Source of the DNA: a virus
Length of the DNA: 64,000 nt
Virus genome (UHGV): UHGV-0371537
Strand: one strand, 5' to 3'
The notes beneath the pieces are model-generated. The model was given only the letters and a program-made list of their open reading frames with translations. It was not told where the DNA came from and did not search any database. Positions 31,050 to 31,822 of this stretch are shown here, piece by piece. Both the position numbers and the translations under genes were made by a program. Within the stretch, counting starts at the first letter, position 1. Each line of letters opens with the position of its first letter.

Positions 31050-31126
31050 TGGTGGGTCCACCCAGATTTGAACTGAGACCTGACGGATTATGAGTCCGTT
31101 GTTCTAACCCATTAAACTACAGACCC
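31050..31126 (-). tRNA. tRNA-Met (anticodon CAT; could be initiator, elongator or Ile-lysidine type), CCA encoded
   Basis: Hand-folded: acceptor GGGTCTG/TGGACCC, anticodon stem ACGGA/TCCGT loop CTCATAA, T-arm CTCAG-TTCAAAT-CTGGG. Confidence 0.7.
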
Positions 31127-31779
31127 GAAATAATTTCACCAGAGATAATTTTGTTTATCTCACTTTCCCTGATTATTATCAAATTATCAATGCAACTCCA
31201 TTTTGCATGATCTCTTTCTGTTTCATACCCCTTTACTTCGACATACATATCTATCTCGGGTATGTAAAAATCAGGAAAATATAAATGCTGTTTACCTTTC
31301 CAAATATAAGGTATCGCTTCTATTTCTCTTGTCCATGCCAAAGATCTTTTATTCAAATAATCAGCAAAGACAACTTCCCAAGAAGAATGAAATAAAACGC
31401 CGTCGACCAAGAACCTTTTTGATCTACCACAAACATTATGACTGCTGTAGGAATCAGGATTTTCTTTTACGATTTCCCTCATCCTCTCAGAAAAGGATTC
31501 TCTTCTTTCCTGAGACCATACCTTCCCTTTTAATTTTTCAGATATGGCTCGGGAAGTTTCTTTCGTGACTTTAGGTGGTTCTAAACCCAAATCTACTGCT
31601 TTGGTGAATTGATTACCACCTTTCTTGCCGTACATGGGATTATTAACCCCAGACCTGTTTCTTATTATTCTGTCCGGATTTTGTTTACACTGTCGTACAT
31701 GAGACCCCCATGCTTGTACAGTACCAAAGTCTCTTGAACAAAATTCACAAGTTTTCATAAATAGCACCGATAAACACAC
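31117..31779 (-). CDS. putative homing endonuclease (N-terminal zinc finger, NUMOD-like linker, C-terminal PD-(D/E)xK-like nuclease region)
   Basis: 220 aa; CEFCSRDF...HVRQC zinc finger, GKKGGNQFTKA and ISEKLKGKVWSQERRESFSERM NUMOD-like motifs, C-terminal FPDFYIPEIDMYVEVKGYE; embedded in the tRNA island as T4 segB is. Confidence 0.55.
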   Translation of the reverse strand: MCLSVLFMKTCEFCSRDFGTVQAWGSHVRQCKQNPDRIIRNRSGVNNPMYGKKGGNQFTKAVDLGLEPPKVTKETSRAISEKLKGKVWSQERRESFSERMREIVKENPDSYSSHNVCGRSKRFLVDGVLFHSSWEVVFADYLNKRSLAWTREIEAIPYIWKGKQHLYFPDFYIPEIDMYVEVKGYETERDHAKWSCIDNLIIIRESEINKIISGEIISGL

Positions 31780-31796
31780 ATGATGCTATTTAATCT

Positions 31797-31822
31797 GCTC
31801 TAACCACTGAGCTACAGGACCA
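31797..31822 (-). other. truncated tRNA (5' acceptor plus D-arm only) abutting the homing endonuclease start
   Basis: Minus-strand sequence GGTCCTGTAGCTCAGTGGTTAGAGCAG is a canonical tRNA 5' acceptor/D-arm; no matching anticodon/T-arm/3' acceptor follows, instead the endonuclease ORF begins. Confidence 0.45.

Follow-up and report, generated by a model that had tools for sequence, protein, structure and literature searches.

An endonuclease gene and a divergent tRNA gene that lie together in the phage genome UHGV-0371537 probably form a homing endonuclease cassette that is free-standing (intron-less) and has tRNA(CAU) genes as its target. Comparison with related phages shows that this cassette sits inside a resident tRNA-Ile2-like tRNA(CAU) gene, in the place of nucleotides (nt) 28 to ~65. 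The window, i.e. the whole stretch of 64,000 nt that was analysed, belongs to an Agtrevirus-like phage of the Ackermannviridae. Its closest relatives in a megablast search of positions 30800-33600 against the phage collection were SW16-7, SKML-39 and Ag3, and the search matched 279 records. The locus is on the minus strand at the upstream end of a tRNA island, in which ARAGORN and Rfam place a tRNA-Met(cat) at 31126-31050, followed by Arg(tct), Asn, Tyr and Ser. Along the minus strand, a 5′ tRNA stub is followed by a hairpin, the endonuclease open reading frame (ORF), the tRNA(CAU), a 52-nt spacer, a 12-nt 3′ stub and tRNA-Arg.

The cassette lies inside a resident tRNA(CAU) gene

The 5′ stub (GGTCCTGTAGCTCAGTGGTTAGAGCAG; 31821..31795, minus strand) is 27 nt long, occurs once in the window and consists of the acceptor strand, the D-arm and nt 26-27 of a tRNA, ending in GAGCAG. 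Over 28 aligned columns with one gap, it matches the start (nt 1-28) of the intact Marshall/SKML-39-type tRNA(CAU) at 96% identity, a similarity that is not due to chance. Phage SKML-39, which has the most similar flanks and no endonuclease, holds the intact counterpart and reads CACAATAATTT, GGTCCTGTAGCTCAGTCGGTTAGAGCAGTCGACTCATAATCGATTGGTCATTGGTTCAAACCCAATCAGGATCACCA, TCATATTTCAATG and tRNA-Arg. In the window, CACAATAATTT is the end of a conserved ORF-poor region of ~2 kb and lies directly upstream of the 5′ stub. On the other side of the cassette, the 3′ stub TCAGGATCACCA (30986..30997, minus strand), made up of the 3′ acceptor strand and ACCA, matches the last 12 nt of the SKML-39 tRNA exactly. 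It is followed by TCATATTTCAATG and the resident tRNA-Arg(UCU) (30899..30974, minus strand), the same right-hand flank as downstream of the SKML-39 tRNA. Both ends of the SKML-39-type tRNA have been kept in the window, and all that lies between them is new. By this comparison, the old tRNA has left 27 nt at the 5′ end of the cassette and 6-12 nt at its 3′ end, as the first 6 nt of the 3′ stub may be junction microhomology with the end of the spacer. The first-pass annotation, made from the letters of the window, had described the 5′ fragment, which is real, but it overlooked the 3′ stub and stated that there was no 3′ half.

A second, independent empty site was found in Kuttervirus. Phage Sa157lw carries an intact GGCCCCG-type tRNA (GGCCCCGTAGCTCAGTGGTTAGAGCAGTCGACTCATAATCGA...CCA), and at exactly this site PhaxI has the stub GGCCCCGTAGCTCAGTGGTTAGAGCAG, followed by hairpin, ORF and tRNA. 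SW16-7 is like the window and has stub and cassette where SKML-39 has the intact tRNA. At this collinear locus the cassette is present in some phages and absent from SKML-39 and Sa157lw, and since the tRNA(CAU) is intact in these two, the cassette replaced the missing part of the tRNA. The two empty/filled pairs (SKML-39 versus the window and SW16-7; Sa157lw versus PhaxI) bear out the first-pass suggestion that the element had inserted into and destroyed a tRNA gene, which should be uninterrupted at this position in related phages. The condition that the first-pass annotation had named as refuting its suggestion does not hold, since tRNA remnants do flank the fragment in homologues and the protein is homologous to nucleases (see below).

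The left junction was identical in all eight carriers examined, the stub ending after GAGCAG at tRNA nt 27. For the right junction the genera differ: in Agtrevirus it falls within the 3′ acceptor strand, Kuttervirus has it ~70 nt past the tRNA, and in cp19 it immediately follows the cassette tRNA. The 52-nt spacer (30998..31049, minus strand) travels with the cassette in Agtrevirus and Kuttervirus and is absent in cp19. It has no significant similarity to a tRNA 3′ half. A longer 3′ remnant with a decayed T-arm in the spacer was considered and rejected, as its alignment score was reached by 33% of shuffles, which leaves the terminal 12-mer as the only genuine 3′ remnant. In its acceptor part the 5′ stub follows the local genus (GGTCCTG or GGCCCCG), and the D-loop of the window stub (GTGG) is of the cp19/PhaxI type and not of the SKML-39/SW16-7 type (GTCGG). 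This combination is expected from crossovers inside the stub.

The interrupted resident tRNA is 83-90% identical to E. coli genes annotated as tRNA-Ile by PGAP (CAT-anticodon Ile2 type) and 77-81% identical to ileZ of Stx phages and to the tRNA-Ile of P7. As read from the SKML-39 sequence, it has the pairs C4-G69 and C5-G68, which are the TilS determinants of tRNA-Ile2, the AUA decoder whose CAU anticodon is modified to lysidine. In both respects it has the features of a tRNA-Ile2, and 'tRNA-Met' is therefore merely a label based on the anticodon. This resident type is widespread in Ackermannviridae (172 records at >=90% identity).

A divergent tRNA(CAU) overlaps the end of the endonuclease gene

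The tRNA(CAU) downstream of the endonuclease gene (31050..31126, minus strand; Rfam tRNA 64.5 bits) begins with GGGTCTGTAGTTTAATGGGTTAGAACAACGGACTCATAATCCGTC, has the acceptor stem GGGTCTG and is 67% identical to the resident tRNA. The ORF ends in TCG GGT CTG TAG, so that its last 10 nt (GGGTCTGTAG) are nt 1-10 of the intact tRNA and the stop codon TAG is nt 8-10. The overlap had been noted in the first-pass annotation, which called the tRNA an intact tRNA-Met, a label that reflects the anticodon. In Ackermannviridae this tRNA type was found only in the nine endonuclease-carrying records and in KE27, and by its distribution it is a part of the mobile unit and not a bystander. The anticodon loops of resident and cassette tRNA are identical (CTCATAA), and the D-stem of the cassette tRNA differs (GGTTAGAACAA versus GGTTAGAGCAG) with compensating changes. 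A BLAST search against E. coli returned only insignificant matches to plasmid tRNA-Ile genes (E 0.6-7). The cassette tRNA has the pairs U4-A69 and C5-G68 and was 66.7% identical to both Ile2 and Met reference sequences that had been entered by hand.

In Salmonella phage KE27 (sequence L017, 2480-2640) a cassette-type tRNA(CAU) and the spacer directly follow the conserved upstream region, and stub, hairpin and endonuclease are absent. KE27 is probably a deletion derivative. Its endonuclease was probably lost by recombination between the similar 5′ ends of the tRNA (GGGTCTGTAGTTTAATAGG) and of a 105-nt tRNA-like element (GGGGCGATAGTTTAAGGGA). This conserved element (~103 nt, GGGGCGATAGTTTAAGGGA...GGTGAAAATCCTCAGACCCCGCCA) has tRNA-like ends, is not called by ARAGORN and was found in PhaxI, Ag3, cp19 and Sa157lw; copies lie in L004 (3837-3939, minus strand), in L001 (~2805-2910) and in L005 downstream of the tRNA. 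The 105-nt form GGGGCGATAGTTTAAGGGA...CCCCGCCA of PhaxI, Ag3 and cp19 is absent from the window.

The endonuclease

The ORF tool reported 220 amino acids with a GTG start (31117..31779), the length also given in the first-pass annotation. The start codon is likely the ATG at 31758, which yields a shorter protein of 213 amino acids (MKTCEFC...; 31117..31758, minus strand), because the match to PHROG 15137 ('endonuclease'; residues 8-220 of the 220-residue ORF, E = 6e-68) begins at residue 8 and all homologues begin there. The protein consists of a C2HC zinc finger, a NUMOD3-like linker and a PD-(D/E)XK nuclease. A zinc finger, NUMOD-like motifs and a C-terminal nuclease had been proposed before, and they were supported here by Pfam matches, alignments and similarity to T7 endonuclease I.

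The Pfam matches were all sub-threshold (Phage_endo_I, DUF7487, NUMOD3 and C2H2/C2HC fingers). NUMOD3 (PF07460) covered about residues 37-53 with 18.4 bits against a cut-off of 20.4 (E 0.002), and PF07460 is precomputed for the homologues P0003, P0005 and P0040. Phage_endo_I (PF05367) scored 24.1 bits against a curated cut-off of 29.1, and the protein is thus related to this family and not a curated member. No GIY-YIG domain was present among the Pfam and PHROG matches of the ORF. In alignments of 6 and of 64 homologues, C4, C7, H20, W127-E128, P162-D163-F164, E174 and K176-G177 were invariant, while C24 and V175 were invariant in the smaller and at least 90% conserved in the larger alignment. 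Residues 123-186 were aligned by phmmer to T7 endonuclease I (PDB 1m0d; E 0.009), and E128, D163, E174 and K176 fall on E20, D55, E65 and K67 of that enzyme, i.e. on all four catalytic residues. The protein carries the PD-(D/E)XK catalytic signature (E128, P162-D163, E174-V-K176) and the restriction-endonuclease-like alpha/beta core of the PD-(D/E)XK fold, and its AlphaFold2 model was confident (predicted local distance difference test score 90.6). Histone H2B matches in the search of solved-structure sequences, one chain of which scored slightly above T7 endonuclease I, were judged spurious. In metagenomes ~108 homologue clusters were found, which apart from one stray label are 'hypothetical' or unnamed.

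It is very improbable that the gene encodes a non-mobile DNA-processing nuclease of the T7 endonuclease I or Holliday-junction resolvase type that came to lie in the tRNA island by chance. The Phage_endo_I match, PHROG matches labelled resolvase/endonuclease and the label 'endodeoxyribonuclease I' of several GenBank homologues would agree with such a function. However, the gene is missing from ~97% of the Ackermannviridae and hence has no core function. Moreover, the N-terminal zinc finger and NUMOD3-type modules are typical of homing endonucleases, the guanine-cytosine (GC) content of the ORF is foreign (36.6% versus 49% for the window), and the ORF interrupts or abuts a tRNA.

The codon usage of the ORF was also unusual: 10 of its 18 isoleucine codons are ATA (10 of 213 codons), about ten times the phage average of 4.9 per 1000 codons in the large ORFs, and 14 of the arginine codons are AGA or AGG. 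The gene is flanked by the tRNA(CAU), a possible AUA reader, and by tRNA-Arg(UCU), an AGA reader. Judged from these codons, the element may depend on tRNAs that travel with it.

Hairpin and promoter upstream of the endonuclease gene

Between stub and ORF, RNAfold predicted a hairpin (31758..31792, minus strand; ATTAAATAGCA...TGCTATTT) with 9 outer base pairs (bp), formed by AAATAGCA and TGCTATTT, and a short inner stem. Its 3′ arm takes in the A of the start codon ATG 31758, which forms the outermost pair. The 8-bp hairpin of the first-pass annotation is therefore real and longer than proposed, while the ATG in its loop is not the start. The folding energy was -12.3 kcal/mol (z = -1.6). Hairpins occur at the same position in relatives: in PhaxI and SW16-7 RNAfold gives a stem of 12 bp, made up of AAGUAAUACCA/UGGUAUUACUU and one closing pair, Apostate and IME341 likewise have a 12-bp stem each, and z was between -2.7 and -4.6 in these four. 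The stem sequence differs between window/cp19 and PhaxI/SW16-7, but the pairing is kept. The idea of the first-pass annotation that the hairpin may gate translation is plausible and agrees with published work on T4 endonucleases. In T4-like relatives the loop often holds TATAAATA and the 3′ arm a GGAG. This arrangement is the one published for I-TevI-III, segB and mobE, in which hairpins regulate translation (PMC2988022).

The 11-nt hairpin loops of PhaxI (TGTGTGTTGAT; L004, 3770-3800) and SW16-7 (ATCAACACACA; L003, 3960-3990) are exact reverse complements of each other on identical stems. The loop has been flipped, as happens by recombination across an inverted repeat.

Just upstream of the stub lies a candidate sigma-70-like promoter (TTGATA-18-AATAAT; 31824..31853, minus strand; 10/12 matches). 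Such sites were not above chance in number in the region, and the support for this one is its position. The same sequence precedes the intact tRNA in SKML-39. It is probably the promoter of the resident tRNA operon, which would now also drive the cassette, and the tRNA stub would then be the 5′ leader of the endonuclease mRNA.

Distribution in Ackermannviridae

By tblastn the endonuclease was found in 9 of ~279 Ackermannviridae records at 90-93% amino acid identity. The carriers are SW16-7 and SP-9-14 in Agtrevirus, PhaxI (two records), S115, BRM 13312, Se_EM1 and Se_EM4 in Kuttervirus, and cp19 in Taipeivirus, and the ORF was intact in all nine. Comparison of the records shows that the occurrence is sporadic across these three genera. 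It also shows that two cassette lineages have recombined in the copy of the window. For stub, hairpin and ORF nt 1-426 the nearest sequence is that of cp19 (92-100%); over ORF nt 427-642 and in tRNA and spacer, PhaxI/SW16-7 come closest (93-99%). In the right-hand flanks, from the 3′ stub through tRNA-Arg and beyond, the greatest similarity is to SKML-39 and SW16-7 (97-99%). Both this mosaic and the genus-specific acceptor part of the stub are compatible with recombination in the flanks.

In ~30 other Ackermannviridae records the same slot holds an unrelated HNH endonuclease of 137 amino acids. In Salmonella phage Marshall (L010, minus strand) the HNH ORF (2057-2470) ends in AAG GTC CTG TAG, where the TAG is nt 8-10 of the intact resident GGTCCTG-type tRNA(CAU) (1990-2066). 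As both the HNH and the PD-(D/E)XK ORFs end in the TAG of a tRNA, two unrelated endonuclease families abut the same tRNA in the same manner.

Relatives in other phages and the link to tRNA(CAU)

Relatives with 27-48% identity are found in tRNA clusters of Straboviridae and other phages. We counted features around 57 distinct proteins from IMG/VR and reference phages. A tRNA lies within 1.5 kb of the ORF in 54 of them, and in 27 a tRNA on the same strand starts between 38 nt before and 12 nt after the end of the ORF. The anticodon of these abutting tRNAs was CAT in 18 and Ile(TAT) in two cases, whereas CAT made up only 15 of the 199 other tRNAs in the loci (Fisher p = 1.4e-11). Three classes of overlap were seen, in which the stop codon comes from a conserved tRNA element: U8-A9-G10 (10 nt), a TAG or TAA in the D-loop (23-26 nt) or a TAA in the anticodon loop (38 nt).

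A GGTTAGAGCAG-like motif (<=2 substitutions, outside called tRNAs) was present 33-62 nt upstream of the start in 19 of 41 relatives, compared with 24 of 1422 background windows (p = 1.4e-20). Exact GGTTAGAGCAG was found in none of the 209 intact tRNAs of carrier loci and is present in the intact tRNAs of the endonuclease-free phages SKML-39, Marshall and Sa157lw. As the motif is kept upstream and is absent from the intact tRNAs of carriers, we read it as a recognition half-site, of which intact copies do not persist beside the enzyme.

Vibrio phage Kuja shares the architecture seen in the window: a stub of 24 nt (GGCCCCTTAGCTCAGTGGTTAGAG) precedes the ORF, whose end overlaps a tRNA(CAU) of the GGGTCTG type by the same TAG. 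In IME341 the ORF lies between tRNA-Ile(CAT) and tRNA-Arg; it is preceded by a D-arm/anticodon-stem stub and the hairpin, and ends at a TAA in the anticodon loop of tRNA-Arg. In many lineages the stubs end within tRNA nt 24-38. Acinetobacter phage Apostate (L014, 1926-2665) carries the hairpin and a homologue with 46% amino acid identity between nt 36 and 37 of a tRNA(CAU), both halves of which are intact (...GTGGACTCAT, insert, AATCCATTGG...CCACCA). Its TAA stop is formed at the junction with A37-A38, and the tRNA halves gave weak partial tRNA matches in Rfam. By its sequence this locus looks like the pristine state of the insertion.

The isotype bias bears on the question of whether the enzyme could be a homing endonuclease with another target, such as a generic tRNA element or the flank, for which tRNA clusters are tolerant landing sites. 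T4 SegB, which lies between tRNA genes, recognises a motif of the T-loop that many tRNAs share (PMC2330249), and SegB homologues co-localise with tRNAs without isotype preference (PMC13096335). Seven of the 27 abutting tRNAs were, in addition, neither CAT nor TAT. We nevertheless consider this quite unlikely given the strong bias to CAT, the end points of the stubs, the clean insertion in the Apostate anticodon loop and the absence of exact GGTTAGAGCAG from the carriers' intact tRNAs.

The first-pass annotation had also raised the possibility of a group I intron at the locus. An endonuclease encoded by a self-splicing intron or lying in a split tRNA, with the interrupted tRNA restored at the RNA level, would have precedents: bacterial tRNA genes host group I introns in the anticodon loop, and the Synechocystis tRNA-fMet intron encodes the PD-(D/E)XK enzyme I-Ssp6803I (review PMC3984707). 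The intact tRNA halves of Apostate would fit as well. In the window, however, the old tRNA has lost its anticodon arm, variable loop and T-arm, only 12 nt of its 3′ part are left, and the non-coding stretch between stub and ATG is merely 36 nt. Rfam gave no intron match at E <=5 for the window or Apostate, and the Apostate insert ends in T or A and not in the terminal G that a group I intron needs. These observations make an intron exceedingly improbable, although in Apostate-type members the tRNA might be rebuilt at the RNA level.

Proposed mechanism

For a free-standing homing endonuclease we propose the following course of events. In a mixed infection, the enzyme would cut an endonuclease-free phage in its intact resident tRNA(CAU) gene, at or close to the DNA of the D-arm and anticodon arm (GGTTAGAGCAG and the anticodon stem). 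The break would then be repaired from the genome of the carrier, by which the endonuclease and the linked tRNA would be copied in. The carrier itself would be immune, its resident site being split and its linked tRNA differing there (GGTTAGAACAA and the compensating D-stem changes). The linked tRNA may make up for the one that was destroyed. Expression of the enzyme is probably kept low in two ways. The hairpin would cover the translation start and, as the stop codon is inside the tRNA, RNase P processing at 31126 would cut the endonuclease mRNA 7 nt before the stop and remove the stop codon from it.

Several points weigh against this interpretation. We infer cleavage and mobility from the sequences, and the target from the place of insertion. 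If the tRNA is the target, immunity must rest on the stems, because the anticodon loops of resident and cassette tRNA are identical. Neither BLAST against E. coli and phages nor reference identity separates Ile2 from elongator Met for the cassette tRNA, and the linked tRNA therefore only may be a functional replacement. As KE27 has this tRNA and no endonuclease, the tRNA type could also be an ordinary allele of the locus. The window hairpin taken alone is not significant, and a clear Shine-Dalgarno sequence is missing. A T4-type late promoter (TATAAATA) in the window hairpin was rejected, since the motif is not enriched in the phage (2 matches). As TATAAATA is not used in this phage, only the occlusion of the start site carries over from the T4 model. 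Finally, the endonuclease diverged between genera (90-93% amino acid identity) about as much as the flanks did (87-96% nt identity), which gives no sign of very recent spread.

The similar divergence of endonuclease and flanks would also be expected of a decayed relic that entered long ago, no longer homes or cuts, and is inherited vertically and deleted in most lineages. The resemblance of KE27 to a deletion derivative that kept only the tRNA and the small number of carrier records point in the same direction. On the other hand, the ORF is intact in every carrier record, the catalytic and zinc-binding residues are conserved among the 64 homologues (C24 at >=90%), and the window cassette is a recombinant of two lineages. 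Moreover, the acceptor part of the stub tracks the local genus, which needs repeated exchange, and the half-site motif has been kept across proteins that are 27-48% identical, which is hard to explain without selection or repeated homing. We therefore regard a relic as unlikely and favour an active homing endonuclease cassette.

An improbable but more far-reaching possibility is a gene drive that swaps a tRNA-Ile2-like gene for a divergent tRNA(CAU), in which endonuclease expression is tied to tRNA processing and the half-site serves as an autorepression operator as in I-TevI. If this were true, the new tRNA might have a changed identity or resist tRNA-cleaving defences of the host, and RNase P cleavage would yield a non-stop endonuclease message.

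If the homing reading is right, the family would be a second, unrelated and uncharacterised endonuclease family in phage tRNA clusters beside T4 SegB, set apart by its specialisation on tRNA(CAU), its half-site stub and, in Ackermannviridae, a tRNA of its own. No description of this endonuclease family was found in the searchable literature, which covers few subscription journals. Free-standing homing endonucleases of phage tRNA clusters have recently been tied to escape from tRNA-cleaving defences. The cassette explains differing 'tRNA-Met' calls and tRNA counts between close Ackermannviridae genomes, and the GGTTAGAGCAG stub, the hairpin, the ORF and the tRNA that overlaps its stop codon provide a signature for annotating the family. 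With its predicted target site, the enzyme could also yield a new nuclease scaffold for long sites.

Neighbouring elements

Upstream of the cassette, from 31822 to ~33750 on the minus strand, ~2 kb are without an ORF of at least 100 amino acids, conserved across Ackermannviridae genera and of ~50% GC. This region contains long complementary segments (e.g. GCAACTCTGATGG and CCATCAGAGTTG near 32110-32020), a 19-bp hairpin (33097-33020) and a sub-threshold Rfam STnc100 match (32190-32300; 32.9 bits, E = 1e-4). Small-ORF annotations in it differ between genome records, and pSal-SNUABM-02 has an inserted HNH endonuclease gene within it (L011, 3710-4186). By these features the region may encode a large structured RNA, or several small RNAs, ahead of the tRNA operon.

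Within it we observed a tmRNA-like tag-coding element (32879-33008, minus strand), with the tag ORF at ~32975-32940 (...CCACAAAGATAAAT GCA AAC TCT GAT GAA TTT CTG GCG GCG GCG TAA TAG, encoding ANSDEFLAAA followed by two stops). The tag of E. coli tmRNA is ANDENYALAA. A block of ~100-130 nt around the tag recurs at 71-84% identity in unannotated DNA of hundreds of unrelated phage records. Among them are Felixounavirus wV8, where it lies inside the tRNA cluster (ANDNVFLAVA, two stops), siphovirus Bas78 (ANDDVVLMAA, two stops) and 71-kb podoviruses. It was also found in P1-like phage-plasmids between dmt and tRNA-Asn (ANDDLMMVAA, one stop) and in E. coli prophages; copies are located in L097 (wV8; 1474-1663), L098 (1500-1630) and L099 (~1500-1640). 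The hairpin after the tag stop codons shows compensatory changes. ARAGORN called no tmRNA in the window or the wV8 locus, and Rfam gave weak matches (tmRNA_permuted, 18.4 bits, in the window; tmRNA, 15.4 bits, in wV8). BLAST of the element against host ssrA gave no match, and no tRNA-like domain for it was found in the window. In wV8, a tRNA-like gene without D-arm lies ~100 nt downstream of the tag element (L097, 1664-1748), scoring 31.7 bits on the Rfam tRNA model and not called by ARAGORN. Its acceptor has C1-G72, G2-C71 and G3:U70, the last being the alanine identity pair, and it could be the acceptor partner of the tag element. No description of a phage tmRNA-like element of this kind was found in the searchable literature, again with few subscription journals covered, and the tag element could be more novel than the endonuclease cassette.

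On the other side of the cassette, between tRNA-Asn and tRNA-Arg of the tRNA island, lies an ORF of 449 amino acids (29403-30752, minus strand) that is repetitive and coiled-coil-like. It is present in SKML-39 and in SW16-7, where its counterpart is annotated 'recognition of host receptor', and is not at this position in Ag3 or PhaxI.

Comparison with known systems

In its setting the cassette resembles T4 SegB. This free-standing enzyme is encoded in a tRNA cluster and cleaves tRNA genes (PMC2330249), and its homologues are significantly co-localised with tRNAs (PMC13096335). Like segB, the endonuclease gene described here lies inside a phage tRNA cluster and has a hairpin at its translation start, and in the Dhakavirus IME341 a member of the family occupies the tRNA-Ile/tRNA-Arg slot that segB holds in T4. 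SegB targets tRNA gene DNA, and its homing carries linked tRNA genes; the same is proposed here. The two differ in fold, which is GIY-YIG in SegB and PD-(D/E)XK here, and in target, as SegB recognises a generic T-loop without isotype preference and the present family is biased to tRNA(CAU). A further contrast is the position of the present family, which lies within a tRNA at its anticodon arm; it leaves behind a 5′ stub, takes its stop codon from the next tRNA and comes with a bundled tRNA.

In fold and site, the present endonuclease resembles I-Ssp6803I, which is reportedly a PD-(D/E)XK homing endonuclease of the Synechocystis tRNA-fMet group I intron, with the anticodon region of a tRNA(CAU) gene as both its target and its place of insertion. 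The present cassette, in contrast, is not part of a group I intron. I-Bth0305I (PDB 3r3p) is encoded by an intron in recA and has an EDxHD, Vsr-like active site, whereas the present protein has the classical E...PD...ExK (19% identity). The best nuclease match among solved structures was T7 endonuclease I (PDB 1m0d; PF05367), a junction-resolving enzyme without the N-terminal DNA-binding modules that are found here. Finally, the cassette recalls the 'genes in pieces' arrangement of Aeh1 mobE and other cases in which a free-standing endonuclease has entered a functional gene and the host makes up for it (PMC2988022). In the case of mobE the split protein halves reassemble, while here the interrupted tRNA is lost and the endonuclease is accompanied by a second, divergent tRNA(CAU).

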